UHGV virus genome: UHGV-1360357
DNA: 29,070 nucleotides
Direction: 5' to 3' (one strand)
DNA from: a virus
Both the position numbers and the translations under genes were made by a program. Positions within the stretch are counted from its first letter, which is position 1. Every line of letters begins with the position of its first letter. A model generated the notes under the pieces. That model was not told the origin of the DNA. It made no database searches and worked only from the letters and a program-made list of their open reading frames with translations. Shown here in pieces: positions 1 to 12,211 of this stretch.

Positions 1-42
1 CAGAAGCAACGCGGAAAATCAATTCCAGCTTATTACGATTGA
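1..42 (+). CDS. 3' end of an upstream early-operon ORF (partial, last 13 codons, stop TGA at 40-42)
   Basis: Open frame running into the window from the left and ending at TGA 40-42; GAGGTGA Shine-Dalgarno for the next ORF overlaps its end. Confidence 0.25.
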   Translation, partial: QKQRGKSIPAYYD

Positions 43-50
43 GGTGAGCC

Positions 51-188
51 ATGCTCAAGAAAGTCAAACGCCGACTTTACAAAGAAGGTAGATATTCATG
101 CCAGTTGCCAAAATGCGACACAACAAAATGGAGTGTCGATGATTGGTGTAACTGGATAGATAGATACGGAACTTGGTGGAATAAATAA
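51..188 (+). CDS. small Cys-rich hypothetical protein (45 aa)
   Basis: ATG at 51 preceded by GAGGTGA RBS; 45 codons to TAA at 186-188; contains four Cys (C-x4-C ... C ... W-rich), possible metal-binding peptide. Not in the >=60 aa ORF track. Confidence 0.4.
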   Translation: MLKKVKRRLYKEGRYSCQLPKCDTTKWSVDDWCNWIDRYGTWWNK

Positions 189-242
189 CAGGTAACTTAA
201 GCGTATTTACTTTCGAAGCAAACAACTTATTTGAGGTGATAT

Positions 243-692
243 ATGGAAGAACAAGCAAACAAGATTCTCGTAGAACTACTGAAAAAAGCCAGTAATGGAA
301 TAGACGCGGCTGTTTCATTTAGCCAGGCACAGATTCCTGATGTTGTTCATCAGTTGCTGCTATGGAATATGGTTGACAGTCTGATTAAAACATTAATGGC
401 CATTCTAACAATCCCACTGGTTTTCTGGTTTATGAAGAAGCAGTGCCAAAGAGTTGAGACAGGTAAAATCGGTGATGAAGGATATTCATGGGAGAAAGGA
501 AATCACAAATACAGGCCGACAATGGTTTGGGATAGCAAAGGTGATATTAATCTTCTTATCATGCCATTGGTTGTAGTTTTGACTCTGTGGGGGATTTTTA
601 TTATTGGTGTAGTAACCAATATGACTTGGTTAAAAATTTGGCTGGCCCCAAAGCTTTACCTTATCGAATATGCAGCATCATTGGTTAAGTAA
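243..692 (+). CDS. hypothetical membrane protein (149 aa, two hydrophobic helices)
   Basis: ATG 243 with GAGGTGA RBS; two long hydrophobic stretches (LIKTLMAILTIPLVFWF and LLIMPLVVVLTLWGIFIIGVV) suggest inner membrane localisation; followed by a hairpin terminator. Confidence 0.6.
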   Translation: MEEQANKILVELLKKASNGIDAAVSFSQAQIPDVVHQLLLWNMVDSLIKTLMAILTIPLVFWFMKKQCQRVETGKIGDEGYSWEKGNHKYRPTMVWDSKGDINLLIMPLVVVLTLWGIFIIGVVTNMTWLKIWLAPKLYLIEYAASLVK

Positions 693-696
693 TTTC

Positions 697-722
697 AGGC
701 CGCATAGTCGGCCTTTATTTTT
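697..722 (+). terminator. hairpin plus T-run, putative intrinsic terminator
   Basis: AGGCCG-catagt-CGGCCT stem-loop followed by TTTATTTTT directly after the stop of the 149-aa ORF. Confidence 0.5.
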
Positions 723-744
723 GGCATAAACAACAGAGGTGGAT

Positions 745-1023
745 ATGAAAGAGTTTAAGGGTACGCCTGGTAAATGGAAGTACACGGTTAGAAACGTCAA
801 CGAGATGATGACTACGTTCCATGGTGTGACGATTGGTGACACATACATTGAAGCAGCAACAAGAAATGAAAGGGAGGATGCGCTACTGATAGCAGCAGCT
901 CCTGATTTGCTTGAAGCACTGCAAGAGCTTGTCTTCATTTACGAGCATGACGAAGGGTGCAGAGAGTTAACCGAATACAAACGAGCCAAGGCAGCCATCA
1001 GCAAGGCTCTTGGGGAAGAATGA
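745..1023 (+). CDS. hypothetical protein (92 aa) with Ea22-like IAAAPDLLEAL motif
   Basis: ATG 745 with AGAGGTGG RBS (the track ORF starts at an upstream GTG at 739); the IAAAPDLLEALQEL segment resembles the conserved AxEFIAAAxPAxVLALLDELE segment of the Ea22-like ORF at 5191. Confidence 0.55.
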   Translation: MKEFKGTPGKWKYTVRNVNEMMTTFHGVTIGDTYIEAATRNEREDALLIAAAPDLLEALQELVFIYEHDEGCRELTEYKRAKAAISKALGEE

Positions 1024-1181
1024 TGAATAAGAAATACATTGTTGAAGTTATAGAGCGAGAAACGAAAGAAGTAATTAAACATTTCGAATTTGATAATTAT
1101 AGAAAAGCTGACCGCGTAGAAGAAGGATTGTTGCGACAAAGTAATCTCGAAAAATTTGATGTTGTCATGCGATGCGAATAA
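1020..1181 (+). CDS. hypothetical small protein (53 aa)
   Basis: ATGATG at 1020 overlapping the upstream stop (ATGA coupling), GGGGAAGAA RBS; charged, no hydrophobic segment. Confidence 0.4.
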   Translation: MMNKKYIVEVIERETKEVIKHFEFDNYRKADRVEEGLLRQSNLEKFDVVMRCE

Positions 1182-1272
1182 GCACCTATAGCAGATTTGC
1201 GAGTCTGCTATGTGAGCAATGTCGCTCGTAACTAAACAGGAGTCGACTTGTTCTGATTATTGGAAATCTTCT

Positions 1273-1302
1273 TTGCCCTCCAGTGTGAGGGCAATTTTTT
1301 TT
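1273..1302 (+). terminator. strong hairpin plus T8 intrinsic terminator
   Basis: TTGCCCTC-cagtgt-GAGGGCAA stem-loop followed by TTTTTTTT, immediately upstream of a GGAGG RBS and ATG 1315. Confidence 0.6.
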
Positions 1303-1314
1303 GATGGAGGAATT

Positions 1315-1731
1315 ATGGAAATTACAGATATTCTGGTTAATCCAGATAATTACGACCAATTCAATATCTCTACTCAATCAGTTGATTTGGGTTGTGCAAC
1401 TGTCAGCGCATGGCTACTTAATGGTAAACAGTTGGATAAATGCCTTGATGCACATATGACGGTTAACAGCTTCCTTGCAGAAAAAACACACTGGCAAGAT
1501 GCTGGAGGGAAATATGCTGGATGGCTTGAAAGCATGGGATTTGAATATCAATCTGATGAAGGTTGGTGGAGCCTTATAGCTGTAACGCCTGAGACAATAG
1601 AATGCTTCGTTAAATACTCAAACGACGATGACTATAAACACCAGGTGGATTCTGCGATAGAAAGATACAAAAGAAAATCGTTCAGCCACGAAATATCATC
1701 AGTTCTTGATTTCATAGAAATCTTCAAATAA
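1315..1731 (+). CDS. hypothetical protein (138 aa), candidate early accessory gene
   Basis: ATG 1315 with GGAGG RBS 5 nt upstream; the longer track ORF from 1219 would read through the terminator hairpin, so the internal start is preferred. Confidence 0.55.
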   Translation: MEITDILVNPDNYDQFNISTQSVDLGCATVSAWLLNGKQLDKCLDAHMTVNSFLAEKTHWQDAGGKYAGWLESMGFEYQSDEGWWSLIAVTPETIECFVKYSNDDDYKHQVDSAIERYKRKSFSHEISSVLDFIEIFK

Positions 1732-1814
1732 GCCGCCAAGCGCGGCTTTACCGCATACCAATAACGCTTCACTTGAGGCGTTTTCGTTATGCAATCAAAC
1801 AGAAGGAGCATCCT

Positions 1815-1985
1815 ATGCAACAGTTCGCTATTGCAGGGGCGGCATCGGTTCGCCCTTTCAACCCAATTTTATCGGTGCAGCATTCACGAAAAAACATTTT
1901 AACCGGAGCAGACTTTAAACAACCAAGAATGAAAAGTTTGCTCGAAAAGCTTTGGGATATTTTGAAACAACAAGGCCGCCCATGA
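1815..1985 (+). CDS. small protein (56 aa) with lambda CIII-like termini (possible FtsH-inhibitor family)
   Basis: ATG 1815 with AAGGAG RBS; N-terminus MQQFAIAG and C-terminal SLLEKLWDILKQQG resemble lambda CIII (MQYAIAG ... ESLLERI ... IDILNQPG) as recalled from memory; position upstream of the recombination genes fits the cIII/kil slot. Confidence 0.35.
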   Translation: MQQFAIAGAASVRPFNPILSVQHSRKNILTGADFKQPRMKSLLEKLWDILKQQGRP

Positions 1986-2140
1986 GTTTTACAGATAACT
2001 GGTCAGACGAAGAATTCATTCTTCAGATGAAAGAATTAATCGGTAACGAAGGAGATATTCATGTCACTTGCAACCACAGTGAAGGAGAGCAAGTTACAGA
2101 GACGCATGTACACGCAGAAAGCTCTCTGGTATCGCCATAA
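1982..2140 (+). CDS. hypothetical small acidic protein (52 aa), at the kil-like position
   Basis: ATG 1982 overlapping the upstream stop (ATGA); 52 codons; no recognisable domain. Confidence 0.35.
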   Translation: MSFTDNWSDEEFILQMKELIGNEGDIHVTCNHSEGEQVTETHVHAESSLVSP

Positions 2141-2239
2141 TGGCGACCGCGAAGGAATGCGGGTATGCCTTAATTTGTCCCGAGTCGAAGTATTAAATCA
2201 GCGTTATTTCCTTGGGCCGTGTCCATTCTGAGGTGAATT

Positions 2240-2947
2240 ATGGATTTGAATAAATTCGATGAGCCATTCAGCCCTGAAGATATCGAATGGCGAATACAGC
2301 AAAGCGGTAAAACACGCGATGGCAAAGTGTGGGCTATGGTGCTGGCTTATGTCACGAACCGGGCAATCATGAAACGCCTGGACGATGTTTGCGGCAAAGC
2401 AGGATGGCGCAATGAATACCGCGATATTCCCAACAACGGCGGAGTTGAATGCGGCATATCAATCAAAATTGATTCCGAATGGGTAACCAAATGGGATGCT
2501 GCTGAAAACACGCAAGTAGAAGCCGTCAAAGGTGGTCGTTCCGGTGCAATGAAGCGCGCTGCCGTTCAATGGGGAATCGGTCGGTATCTGTATAACCTTG
2601 AGGAAGGTTTCGCACAAACATCTCTCGATAAAAAGCAGGGGTGGCACAGGGCAAAACTGAAGGATGGAACAGGGTTTTACTGGCTCCCTCCAACGCTGCC
2701 CGGCTGGGCAATCCCAGCATCAGATAACAAACCATCACCAGAAAATACCAACCAGAAATCTCCATCGGTTGACTGCGAACAAATCCTGAAAGACTTCAGC
2801 GATTATGCATCGAAAGAAACTGATAAGAAAAAACTCATCGAGCGTTATCAGCGTGACTGGCAATTAATGGCTGGAAACGAGGAGGCGCAGGCTAAATGCG
2901 TTCAGGTAATGAACATCAGAGTTAACGAGCTAAAACAGGCGGCATAA
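2240..2947 (+). CDS. Rad52/22-family single-strand annealing protein (phage recombinase)
   Basis: GAGGTGA RBS; 235 aa; contains the Rad52-family signature region KGGRSGAMKRAAVQWGIGRYLY. Confidence 0.85.
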   Translation: MDLNKFDEPFSPEDIEWRIQQSGKTRDGKVWAMVLAYVTNRAIMKRLDDVCGKAGWRNEYRDIPNNGGVECGISIKIDSEWVTKWDAAENTQVEAVKGGRSGAMKRAAVQWGIGRYLYNLEEGFAQTSLDKKQGWHRAKLKDGTGFYWLPPTLPGWAIPASDNKPSPENTNQKSPSVDCEQILKDFSDYASKETDKKKLIERYQRDWQLMAGNEEAQAKCVQVMNIRVNELKQAA

Positions 2948-3471: not shown

Positions 3472-4020
3472 ATGAATCACTTGATGGTTGACCTTGAAAC
3501 AATGGGCAACGGGCCATACGCGCCAGTTATTTCTGTTGGGGCGGTATTCTTTGACCCGAATACCGGAGAAACAGGAGAAGAGTTCTCGGTAAATATCTCG
3601 CTTGAGTCATCAATGCGATATCGGGCGCGTCCTGACGCTTCAACGATTTTATGGTGGCTGGAACAGAGTGAAGAAGCCAGAAAATCGCTAACCAGCAACA
3701 CTCAAGAGCTTTCAACGGCTCTTTCATGGTTATCTGAATTCATCATAAAGAACGCCAACCACAAACTCGTTCAGGTTTGGGGGAATGGAGCATCATTTGA
3801 CTGCGTTATTCTCCGCAACAGTTATTCGCTGACAGGGAAGCCAGTTCCGTGGCAGTGGTGGAATGACCGCGACGTAAGAACAATCGTCGAACTTGGGAAG
3901 GTAATAGGATTCGATCCTAAGCGAGATATGCCATTCAAAGGAACTCGCCACAACGCGCTTGATGATGCCATCCACCAAGCCAAATACGTTTCAGCGATCT
4001 GGAAAAAGTTAGCTAAATAA
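3472..4020 (+). CDS. DnaQ-like DEDDh 3'-5' exonuclease
   Basis: Exo I motif VDLETMG, Exo II GNGASFDCVIL, Exo III HNALDDAIHQAKY; 182 aa; AAGGA RBS. Confidence 0.85.
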   Translation: MNHLMVDLETMGNGPYAPVISVGAVFFDPNTGETGEEFSVNISLESSMRYRARPDASTILWWLEQSEEARKSLTSNTQELSTALSWLSEFIIKNANHKLVQVWGNGASFDCVILRNSYSLTGKPVPWQWWNDRDVRTIVELGKVIGFDPKRDMPFKGTRHNALDDAIHQAKYVSAIWKKLAK

Positions 4021-4037: not shown

Positions 4038-4331
4038 ATGCCAGCGCCTCTGTATGGTGCGGATGACCCGCGCCGCTGTTCCGGCAATTCCGTATCGGAG
4101 GTGCTGGATAAATTCAGAAAAAACTACGATCGAATAATGTCTCTACCACAGGAAACGAAAGAGGAAAAGGAATTTCGCCACTGTATATGGCTTGCAGAGA
4201 AAGAAGAACGAGAGCGAATTTACCAGACATCAATCCGACCATTCCGCAAAGCCACATATACCCACTTCCCTGAAATTGACCCGCGCCTACGTAATTACCG
4301 CTCACGCTATGGCGCTATCAGTAATGACTGA
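4038..4331 (+). CDS. hypothetical protein (97 aa)
   Basis: ATG 4038 with AGGAG RBS; basic/acidic mixed small protein. Confidence 0.5.
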
Positions 4332-7259: not shown

Positions 7260-7478
7260 ATGTACTTGACACTTCAGGAGTGGAACGCACGCCAACGACG
7301 CCCAAGAAGCCTTGAAACAGTTCGTCGATGGGTACGCGAGTGCAGGATATTCCCTCATCCGGTTAAGGATGGAAGAGAGTATCTGTTCCACGAATCAGCG
7401 GTAAAGGTTGACTTAAATCGACCAGTAACAGGTAGCCTTTTGAAGAGGATCAGAAATGGGAAGAAGGCGAAGTCATGA
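7260..7478 (+). CDS. xis: excisionase Xis (lambda-type)
   Basis: 72 aa, MYLTLQEWNARQRRPRSLETVRRWVRECRIFPHPVKDGREYLFHESAVKVDL..., recognised as lambda Xis; overlaps the int start as in lambda. Confidence 0.9.
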   Translation: MYLTLQEWNARQRRPRSLETVRRWVRECRIFPHPVKDGREYLFHESAVKVDLNRPVTGSLLKRIRNGKKAKS

Positions 7479-8526
7479 GCGCCGGGATTTACCCCCTAAC
7501 CTTTATATAAGAAACAATGGATATTACTGCTACAGGGACCCAAGGACGGGTAAAGAGTTTGGATTAGGCCGAGACAGGCGAATCGCAATCACTGAAGCTA
7601 TACAGGCCAACATTGAGTTATTTTCAGGACACAAACACAAGCCTCTGACAGCGAGAATCAACAGTGATAATTCCGTTACGTTACATTCATGGCTTGATCG
7701 CTACGAAAAAATCCTGGCCAGCAGAGTAATCAAGCAGAAGACACTCATAAATTACATGAGCAAAATTAAAGCAATAAGGAGGGGTCTGCCTGATGCTCCA
7801 CTTGAAGACATCACCACAAAAGAAATTGCGGCAATGCTCAATGGATACATAGACGAGGGCAAGGCGGCGTCAGCCAAGTTAATCAGATCAACACTGAGCG
7901 ATGCATTCCGAGAGGCAATAGCTGAAGGCCATATAACAACAAACCCTGTCGCTGCCACTCGCGCAGCAAAATCAGAGGTAAGGAGATCAAGACTTACGGC
8001 TGACGAATACCTGAAAATTTATCAAGCAGCAGAATCATCACCATGTTGGCTCAGACTTGCAATGGAACTGGCTGTTGTTACCGGGCAACGAGTTGGTGAT
8101 TTATGCGAAATGAAGTGGTCTGATATCGTAGATGGATATCTTTATGTCGAGCAAAGCAAAACAGGCGTAAAAATTGCCATCCCAACAGCATTGCATGTTG
8201 ATGCTCTCGGAATATCAATGAAGGAAACACTTGATAAATGCAAAGAGATTCTTGGCGGAGAAACCATAATTGCATCTACTCGTCGCGAACCGCTTTCATC
8301 CGGCACAGTATCAAGGTATTTTATGCGCGCACGAAAAGCATCAGGTCTTTCCTTCGAAGGGGATCCGCCTACCTTTCACGAGTTGCGCAGTTTGTCTGCA
8401 AGACTCTATGAGAAGCAGATAAGCGATAAGTTTGCTCAACATCTTCTCGGGCATAAGTCGGACACCATGGCATCACAGTATCGTGATGACAGAGGCAGGG
8501 AGTGGGACAAAATTGAAATCAAATAA
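7456..8526 (+). CDS. int: tyrosine integrase Int (lambda-type)
   Basis: 356 aa; N-terminal arm-binding domain MGRRRSHERRDLPPNLYIRNNGYYCYRDPRTGKEFGLGRDRR, catalytic region with the conserved R...H-x-x-R...Y residues (HELRSLSARL, LLGHKSDTMASQY); recognised as lambda Int. Confidence 0.95.
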   Translation: MGRRRSHERRDLPPNLYIRNNGYYCYRDPRTGKEFGLGRDRRIAITEAIQANIELFSGHKHKPLTARINSDNSVTLHSWLDRYEKILASRVIKQKTLINYMSKIKAIRRGLPDAPLEDITTKEIAAMLNGYIDEGKAASAKLIRSTLSDAFREAIAEGHITTNPVAATRAAKSEVRRSRLTADEYLKIYQAAESSPCWLRLAMELAVVTGQRVGDLCEMKWSDIVDGYLYVEQSKTGVKIAIPTALHVDALGISMKETLDKCKEILGGETIIASTRREPLSSGTVSRYFMRARKASGLSFEGDPPTFHELRSLSARLYEKQISDKFAQHLLGHKSDTMASQYRDDRGREWDKIEIK

Positions 8527-11036: not shown

Positions 11037-11993
11037 TCAGTAGTTATGTACTGAAGGAGGTAATTCTTTATTCTTAAGTCTCATCCATGCGGAAAGATTC
11101 GTTGGTCCGTCTGGCTCATTGATATCAACATCTCGTGTGTGATTGATTAAAACGTCTCTCGCCATATCGATAATACGGGAGAACTCATAACCGCAGTCAT
11201 GACATCTGCCGGAATAGTTCGATTGAATTTGTTTTAGCGCCGGATACAATTCGCGGAATAATGCCTGTGAGCGGTTGGCATAATCCCATAACCATACAAG
11301 GCTGTTTGCTTCTTTTGCAGAAAGCTCGTCGGTTTTCTTCTCTTGTTTGCCGATAAATTCACCTTCAAGCACTACCCTGTGGATGTACTCTACGGCCAGC
11401 GGGATTTGTTCAATTGAAAGTTCATCAATGCTGTCAATGCCAAAACGCTGATGAACCATATTGTATGCATCGTCATAGCGAAGTCCTTTCTTTCCTACCA
11501 GCATGTTTACTGCATCGCGTAGCGGTGTGCGTTCAGCTACTGAAGTTTTACCGCCAATAGCCTTCCTCTCTTGTGTGGCAGTAACTATTGCGTCATATGC
11601 GCGGATAACCTTCAGCGCAAATGCTGCGCTAATCCACATGGCGTAGGAGTAAACAAGCTCCTTGCACACGTATGTTCCACCATATCTACCTTTCTTAGAA
11701 ATGACGGGATTCTTATTCTGCATATCCGCAGAATTAAAAATTTCATTAATCAATTCAATAGTTTCATTTCTACGCATGAAGAAAGCTGGCTGATGTTTTT
11801 CCTCCTTTCCAGACGCTACATGAAGGTCATTAAGCGAGTAACGACCCTCTGAATCCATATGAATCTTGACGTCAGAAATGATGATGCTATTAGTGCAATT
11901 TACAGTTGACTTTGCTAAGCTTGACATATCAATAATACCTCGTAAGTTTTGTTGATACCGAAGCCCTGACTGTTCCCGCAGTTGGGGCTTCAC
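11037..11993 (-). CDS. ant: KilA-N domain antirepressor-like protein at the ant position
   Basis: 318 aa; N-terminal KilA-N-like motif (...[13 protein letters not shown] ... [23 protein letters not shown]); located downstream of arc and upstream of the tailspike as P22 ant is; the symbol is by position, orthology to P22 Ant unverified. Confidence 0.6.
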
Positions 11994-12211
11994 TGTTTTT
12001 GTAAGTCACTGTAGCTATAAAGCCACTGACCACTCATTTTTGATTTGATTGACTCTACTGAGTCACGGCAAGGAATGATTCCGCCTGACATCATTCTGAT
12101 CTCCGTAAATTCACCACTCCTTATCGATTCAATGCCATCAATGTTAACTAAAGATTTACCTCTACCAAGTGCATTCTCATAGCCAATCTCATCAACCTCA
12201 ATAAATCTCAT
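11990..12211 (-). CDS. hypothetical protein (73 aa) inserted between arc and ant
   Basis: ATGA overlaps at both ends (with the arc stop and the ant start) indicate translational coupling; no recognisable domain. Confidence 0.5.

Follow-up and report, generated by a model that had tools for sequence, protein, structure and literature searches.

The early-left region of virus genome UHGV-1360357 as a mosaic of exchangeable cassettes around a homolog of the lambda small RNA PreS

The left end of the virus genome UHGV-1360357, analyzed here as one strand of 29,070 nucleotides (the window), carries a cluster of small open reading frames (ORFs, numbered o1 to o8) at positions 1-2240, upstream of a recombination module. 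This stretch very probably represents the N-proximal accessory part of the early-left (PL) operon of an Sf6/P22-like lambdoid phage, in which gene cassettes are exchanged at conserved non-coding junctions. Within it we identified a homolog of the lambda small RNA (sRNA) PreS/LPR1, which by homology would be the only element in 1-2240 with a demonstrated host-takeover function, and which is an RNA and not an ORF. PreS and a long allele of cIII are the only functionally interpretable parts of the stretch. An earlier annotation made from the letters alone (the sequence-only reading) had described an N-antiterminated PL-type operon of small unknown ORFs punctuated by intrinsic terminators and offered them as candidate anti-defense and host-takeover genes. 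The region is a new mosaic of known parts whose key RNA was already described in 2024; it is a typical mosaic early-left region in which each ORF belongs to an existing phage protein family, and no new kind of system.

The lambdoid PL-operon interpretation is supported because annotated relatives show matching synteny. Alignment to Sf6, HF4s and N7 from the first base of the window places the 3' end of the antitermination gene N directly upstream of the accessory ORFs and on the same strand, the annotated N of these three records stopping 8 nt ahead of the gp36-type ORF. From there the order N, accessory genes, cIII, recombination genes and integrase is kept on a single strand with tL2-type terminators, in synteny with Sf6 (whose record annotates the PL promoter and operators, nutL, N and tL2A), HF4s and mEp213. 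The operon type proposed in the sequence-only reading is therefore supported by the N 3' end, the Sf6-like gene order and the tL2A homolog. The early-left order of Sf6 is N, gp36, ral, gp34, bsq4/tL2A, gp33, cIII, kil, gp30, gp29 and erf; the window has the same operon, orientation and ends, and its N 3' end, gp36 (o1), tL2A block, gp30, gp29 and erf are 96-100% identical. It differs in that ral, gp34, gp33 and kil of Sf6 are missing and o2, the o3-o4 pair, o5 and a long cIII allele are found instead. By megablast the region is a patchwork whose pieces are 93-98% identical to Sf6, HF4s, mEp213, N7 and many Escherichia coli prophages; 339 phage records and 2283 E. coli genomes share one or more of these pieces, and no phage record or complete E. 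coli genome spans at least 80% of 1-2240.

The non-coding junctions were examined by aligning the tL2 block of the window with those of lambda, Sf6, HF4s, mEp213 and three prophages. A terminator scan detects both hairpin/T-run sites that had been noticed earlier, at 697-714 plus a T-run and at 1273-1294 plus T8, the stem of the latter (tL2a) having 8 bp with 5 G-C pairs followed by T8 at 1295-1302 (-13.2 kcal/mol, z = -3.4). The overall excess in the scan is modest (12 sites versus 7.5 +/- 2.2 expected in 8.6 kb), and the stronger evidence is that both sites are nearly identical to their counterparts in lambda and Sf6. The segment 697-722 is homologous to the sequence right after ral in lambda and after gp34 in Sf6, and 1214-1302 is nearly identical to the ral-ea10 intergenic region of lambda and to the Sf6 boundary sequence bsq4 plus tL2A. 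The first terminator sequence (GGCCGCATAGTCGGCCTTTATTTTTGGCATAAACAACAGA) directly precedes the tL2 block in lambda, Sf6, HF4s and the prophages. Because the relatives show both parts contiguous and the window has o3-o4 between them, we read the two terminators as the two halves of a single conserved block of the lambda tL2 type that the o3-o4 cassette (745-1181) interrupts. Both terminators are thus real and conserved, as had been claimed, but they are not simple punctuation between genes, and the second is the 3' end of PreS. What looks like a clean terminator in regions of this kind may therefore mark where a functional sRNA ends.

The 88 nt at 1213-1300 match lambda 34012-33925 at 85 positions (96.6%), above the identity of at least 92% to lambda LPR1 given as the criterion in the preprint describing this RNA (bioRxiv 10.1101/2024.10.31.621285). 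According to that preprint, lambda PreS is an abundant Hfq-dependent sRNA of 88 nt, processed to ~68 nt and ending at tL2a. It is made during lytic growth, turns up the translation of host dnaN and represses alaS, and when it is deleted both DNA replication of the phage and plaque yield are reduced (bioRxiv 10.1101/2024.10.31.621285). The window copy occupies the same PL-operon position and shares the GC hairpin with U-tail and the predicted fold (-29.2 kcal/mol, versus -30.0 kcal/mol for lambda). It differs by three substitutions, at position 1, C31U and G81A, none of which falls in the stretches complementary to dnaN, the gene for the host DNA sliding clamp; G81A turns a U.G pair of the terminator stem into U-A. 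These stretches, identical between window and lambda, are perfectly complementary to the leader of E. coli K-12 dnaN at -27..-17 (11 nt, window 1249-1259) and -47..-36 (12 nt, window 1264-1275), as computed from the sequences. The surroundings differ from lambda: the o3-o4 cassette takes the place of ral on the upstream side and o5 that of ea10 downstream, and the hairpin that abuts the 5' end of the RNA is a rarer allele.

Positions 1-62 of PreS are near-invariant across 118 loci, with variation limited to the loop and tail of the terminator. Of 5426 complete E. coli genomes, 2231 (~41%) carry the block, which is unannotated in the listed matches; no Rfam family was found in 1-2400, and none exists for PreS. 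The prophage anti-sRNAs AgvB/AsxR and the Pas sRNAs were considered as identities for the block and rejected, being located near Q/PR', lysis and structural genes. Immediately 5' of PreS, lambda, Sf6 and most loci have a hairpin of the same position and shape (11-12 bp) with a wholly different stem from that of the window. The V1 stem (GTGTATTCATTC…GAGTGAATACAC) occurs in ~100 of the 118 loci and the V2 stem (CTATAGCAGAT…GAGTCTGCTATG) in ~8, the window included, and a third version is found in one distant lambdoid prophage (L136) ahead of a PreS-like RNA that has diverged and is followed by an o5 homolog. This allelic hairpin may set 5' processing of PreS or shield the 3' end of the upstream mRNA. 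The cassette junctions of the region can be mapped accordingly, with the two tL2 halves, the hairpin 5' of PreS and the Shine-Dalgarno (SD) site after the U-tail as the borders at which cargo is swapped.

Taken together, these features suggest a scheme in which transcription would enter from N and proceed rightward on the + strand and, when not antiterminated by N, would stop in the lambda tL2-type block. The distal half of this block would encode the Hfq-dependent PreS/LPR1 ending at tL2a, and by its near-identity to lambda this RNA would pair with the host dnaN leader and raise sliding-clamp synthesis during lytic growth. The genes behind tL2a (o5, long cIII, o7/o8, erf, ssb, abc2 and on to int) would then be made only from read-through, N-modified transcripts. 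The products of o1, o2, o3, o4, o5 and o8 are real accessory proteins, most likely with a general role in early host-directed modulation.

Table 1. Coordinates of the features of the early-left region and its downstream border
Feature	Positions	Strand	Description and evidence
Antitermination gene N, 3' end (ending …QKQRGKSIPAYYD, then stop)	1-42	+	Alignment to Sf6, HF4s and N7 from window base 1
o1	51-188	+	45 aa; phrog_1871, E = 1.6e-22
o2	243-692	+	149 aa; phrog_3054, E = 1e-63
Intrinsic-terminator-like hairpin and T-run	697-722	+	Scan; -9.7 kcal/mol, z = -1.7
o3	745-1023	+	92 aa; phrog_1273, E = 1e-23
o4	1020-1181	+	53 aa; phrog_6949, E = 3e-40
Stable 11-bp hairpin abutting PreS 5' end, minority allele V2	1187-1212	+	Folding
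Homolog of lambda sRNA PreS/LPR1	1213-1300	+	Lambda identity; seed 1249-1259 and 1264-1275; terminator tL2a stem 1273-1294
o5	1315-1731	+	138 aa; phrog_8967, E = 3e-87
Small GC hairpin closing o5 cassette	1730-1748	+	-10.9 kcal/mol; absent from prophages with tL2a-cIII leader junction
Hairpin and T-run in long cIII leader	1763-1782	+	Scan and folding; conserved in 20KM2222, PEC301 and VTB96929v
o6 (cIII, long allele)	1815-1985	+	56 aa; phrog_550 "CIII", E = 1e-22
o7 (= Sf6 gp30 / HK97 gp42.1)	1982-2140	+	52 aa; phrog_2123, E = 1e-40
o8 (= Sf6 gp29 / HK97 gp42)	2061-2231	+	56 aa; phrog_1723, E = 9e-36; strong GAAGGAG SD
Rad52/Erf-type annealing protein, start of recombination module	2240-2947	+	Pfam Rad52_Rad22, E = 5e-26; phrog_1097
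Integrase	7456-8526	+	

The ORFs themselves are better characterized at the family level than had been supposed (Table 1). All seven that were listed before are present at the sizes reported, but an eighth, o8, had been overlooked. The good SD sites claimed for the seven are found in five of them, as GAGG/GGAG-type sequences 6-9 nt upstream; the start codons of the ORFs at 1020 and 1982 overlap the stop codon of the ORF before them (ATGA), an arrangement suggestive of translational coupling. The products had been called unrecognizable, and every ORF matches a PHROG family (E from 1e-22 to 3e-87), most of these families being of unassigned function. Codon-level conservation in related phages, the lack of which had been named as grounds for abandoning the cluster, was found, where diverged homologs were available, as purifying or synonymous-only divergence in a Nei-Gojobori comparison of the window ORFs with fetched homologs. 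The ratio of non-synonymous to synonymous substitution (dN/dS) is 0.14-0.23 for o2, 0.09 for o5 (against an rV5-like copy) and 0.22 for o8, and o4 and o6 differ from their homologs by synonymous changes only. Where o8 overlaps it, o7 differs from its homologs almost exclusively by non-synonymous changes (dN/dS ~5.7), and it is left out of the RefSeq annotation in several prophages; on these grounds o8 appears to be the safer gene and the coding status of the 3' half of o7 is doubtful. Two minus-strand ORFs, at 64-318 and 678-938, found no support as genes.

The slot behind tL2a illustrates how cargo is exchanged in this operon. In the 20KM2222 and PEC301 prophages the leader of the long cIII allele follows tL2a directly, which identifies o5 as a separate cassette; inserted in the window between tL2a and the cIII leader are the SD, o5 and the closing hairpin at 1730-1748. 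The SD of o5 begins ~5 nt after the U-run, with the same spacing as for ea10 in lambda and gp33 in Sf6, and translation of o5 would accordingly require read-through of tL2a. An exact-pattern scan of viral contigs for the PreS block yielded 120 further loci, 108 of them usable for slot content. The slot holds an Ea10-like gene in ~38 of these, is empty with cIII next in ~37, and carries an Sf6 gp33-like gene in ~10, o5 in 7-8, a P22 gp17-like gene in 4, and otherwise one of five rarer cargos including an HNH endonuclease, each cargo having its SD a few nt past the U-run. The early-left slots had been proposed as hot spots, and gene exchange is confirmed by these 108 loci, with at least 9 alternative cargos or none behind tL2a.

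The distribution of o5 extends beyond lambdoid phages. In the phage collection it was found only in 115 genomes of Vequintavirus (rV5-like, lytic), at ~65% identity; among 5426 complete E. coli genomes 37 carry it, in a prophage and in the same slot in the 3 of 3 that were examined, and the same slot also holds it in two more distant lambdoid prophages. The Vequintavirus counterpart, a 138-aa hypothetical protein (e.g. Bas59 gene 0086), has the same length as o5, ~65% amino acid identity and dN/dS 0.09, and likewise lies directly after an intrinsic terminator; it differs in belonging to a strictly lytic myovirus of 135 kb, where it is surrounded by small unannotated genes on the same strand, and not to a temperate lambdoid phage. 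We also observed o5 homologs right after an intrinsic terminator at L136:3850-3990, L137:3900-3990 and L011:2890-2990 (distant lambdoid prophages and lytic Vequintavirus), and the RNA upstream of the homolog in L136 resembles a diverged PreS in which no more than 8 nt (GTTCTGAT) of the seed complementary to dnaN are left. The o5 family comprises ~62 representative clusters sharing a DWGGxYAxWL…GWWS motif. Its profile found nothing meaningful in PDB or Pfam, and no fold or sequence relative of o5 was detected.

Both ends of the o6 product align with CIII of lambda and Sf6, through the N-terminal MQxFAIAG and the C-terminal LxDILxQxGxP, and the protein carries a 12-aa insertion (isoelectric point, pI, 11). 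It matches PHROG 550 but does not match Pfam PF02061 (Lambda_CIII) at E <= 1. The CIII-like resemblance that had been reported for 1815-1985 is that of a probable CIII variant, and calling it weak holds for Pfam but not for the PHROG family. It is identical to WP_001183771 in four prophages, with synonymous changes only. Activity of lambda CIII requires a central amphipathic helix (residues ~14-37), and the insertion falls inside or beside this region while the flanking motifs are conserved. The long allele has most likely kept the ability to inhibit FtsH and so to stabilize CII. It shares with lambda CIII the position before the recombination genes and the terminal motifs, and differs in the 12-residue insertion and in not being followed by kil in the window or in four examined prophages. 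No kil ORF was found between cIII and the recombination genes; o6 abuts the gp30-type o7, and the 153-nt kil present in Sf6 and STEC384 has no counterpart there. In a small sample, kil is absent from 5 of 5 genomes with the long (56-aa) allele and follows the short allele in 5 of 5. A cIII-kil fusion was considered for the long CIII and rejected, as 1815-1985 has no similarity to Sf6 Kil.

The basic, Trp-rich o1 is 98% identical to Sf6 gp36 and matches Pfam DUF5484 (46.7 bits versus a gathering cut-off of 27), with homologs by tblastn in 924 phage records, mainly T4-like, at ~50% identity. Its description as a Cys-rich peptide was overstated: o1 has 3 Cys, none of them kept in the T4-like homologs, and the conserved residues of the family are Trp, Gly, Tyr and Lys, the Cys being specific to the lambdoid copy. 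In T4-like phages the homologs sit among small ORFs between nrdG and gene 55. Since lytic T4-like and rV5-like phages also carry them, o1 and o5 are probably directed at a host target. The two-segment membrane protein noticed earlier corresponds to o2, in which hydropathy confirms two hydrophobic segments at about residues 43-66 and 100-130. Its counterpart in HF4s is annotated "TM helix-containing protein", its 512 homolog clusters are all unnamed and come from Enterobacteriaceae, and it probably acts at the inner membrane.

The o3-o4 cassette is also found in mEp213, where gp49 is 99% identical to o3 and gp48 is identical to o4. The mEp213 pair likewise belongs to a PL operon; it differs in lying near a second, remnant N gene, where o3-o4 of the window split the tL2 block. 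o3 falls in PF27050 (Phage_P22_Y8K6), an assignment precomputed on clusters 98% identical to o3. An alignment of the family (27 homologs) shows the N-terminal 60 aa and the C-terminal 13 aa to be near-invariant, and the ~20 residues between them to be completely variable in both sequence and length. Variable segments of the o3 type recombine with different N-terminal domains, as in PEC301. We considered whether o3 is a minimal Ead/Ea22 domain, with which it shares TPGxW … LIAAAPxLLxAL, and rejected this at an hhalign probability of 0.6%, the Ead_Ea22 family missing o3-type proteins; the link is a motif-level lead only.

Several other explanations can be set against this interpretation. The hairpin/T-run sites could be mere terminators of the lambda tL2 type that yield no RNA product, the block serving as a recombination "boundary sequence", as its Sf6 annotation (bsq4 plus tL2A) and the exact coincidence of cassette junctions with the block edges would suggest; however, the same sequence in lambda gives an abundant Hfq-bound RNA of 88 nt (68 nt once processed) for which targets have been validated and a phage phenotype is known, positions 1-62 are near-invariant across the 118 loci, the perfect dnaN complementarity is kept in the window, and the terminator or boundary role and the sRNA role are compatible and not exclusive. 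We regard the terminator-only account as highly improbable. That some ORFs are chance ORFs in AT-rich spacer DNA is quite improbable and applies essentially to o7, given the substitution pattern of its 3' half and its absence from the RefSeq annotation of several prophages, while the remaining ORFs combine strong family matches with purifying or synonymous-only divergence. For o2, a SieB- or Imm-like superinfection-exclusion or abortive-infection role, guarding the infected cell or lysogen, would fit a small protein with two hydrophobic segments encoded just downstream of N, where lambda has sieB, and widespread among enterobacterial prophages. We consider this unlikely, as it has no Pfam or PADLOC match and no promoter-like site stands in front of o2, which would probably leave it silent in the lysogen, unlike sieB; identity with SieB itself was rejected for lack of similarity to the lambda protein (E = 30).

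The view of the sequence-only reading that one or more of o1-o5 and o8 are anti-restriction or anti-defense factors in a known hot spot is in our estimate a real if minor possibility. In relatives these slots are occupied by ral, by P22 gp17 (Pfam GP17, a protein that escapes prophage exclusion), by Nmad5 and by abc2-type genes, the slot behind tL2a accepts its many alternative cargos, o1 and o5 are common to lytic T4-like or rV5-like phages and under purifying selection, o5 is acidic (pI 4.5), and the hypervariable segment of o3 between invariant flanks is as expected in an arms race. On the other side, no informative similarity (PADLOC, NCBIfam, PDB, Pfam or structural neighbor) accompanies this reading: the proposed role is plausible by position only, and sequence and structure lend it no evidence. 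The anti-defense profile searches suggested earlier gave nothing useful for the eight ORFs with PADLOC and NCBIfam, PDB sequence searches were uninformative for all ORFs of 1-2240, a Pfam scan of the small unassigned ORFs returned DUF5484 (o1) as the sole and uninformative match, no ORF of 1-2240 matches a Pfam or PHROG family of Ral, SieB or P22 gp17 (Pfam GP17 was found only in a relative), and similarity in sequence or fold to characterized anti-defense inhibitors was not found for these ORFs. Peptide strings of the o-proteins were not found in the supplements of an accessory-gene screen, and literature searches by accession and DUF name returned nothing on these proteins. From the expectation that the zone carries kil, cIII, ral, abc and sieB-type functions, cIII was borne out; kil, ral and sieB-type genes are absent from 1-2240, and abc2 lies beyond it. 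A more specific and somewhat speculative proposal, which we think doubtful, is that o5, which is shared between strictly lytic rV5-like myoviruses and the exchangeable slot behind PreS in temperate lambdoids, represents a new family of host-directed effectors (e.g. inhibitors of host defense or of replication control), and that o3, with its hypervariable 20-residue insert between invariant flanks, is a specificity-switching arms-race binder. For a functional screen, o5 and o1 (shared with lytic phages) and o3 (hypervariable) are better candidates than the whole region.

The interpretation as a mosaic PL operon with PreS also has to accommodate several points that weigh against it. N-antitermination of the window operon is deduced from synteny, as the window begins downstream of PL and nutL. 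That the window PreS is expressed, processed and bound by Hfq is likewise taken from homology to lambda, and C31U, outside the complementary stretches, might affect its function. The long CIII allele could differ in function, having no Pfam match and an insertion in or next to the required helix. The roles suggested for o1-o5 and o8 are conjectural. The structure model of o3 (predicted local distance difference test, pLDDT, 68) is too poor for a fold search, and those of o5 are mediocre, reaching pLDDT 77 in only one of five.

Downstream of 1-2240 the operon continues on the + strand with SSB, an Rv2179c-like exonuclease, Abc2, Ead/Ea22-like genes and the integrase. The Rv2179c-like 3'-5' exonuclease lies at 3472-4020, ahead of abc2, and a full-length P22-type Abc2 (anti-RecBCD; Pfam PF11043, E = 6e-64) is encoded at 4038-4331, downstream of SSB. 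The abc2 gene is the sole recognizable anti-host-nuclease gene of the operon. Farther along the window, a sar RNA (Rfam RF00262, 61.7 bits) at 11929-11994 on the + strand indicates an immI/ant region of the P22 type.

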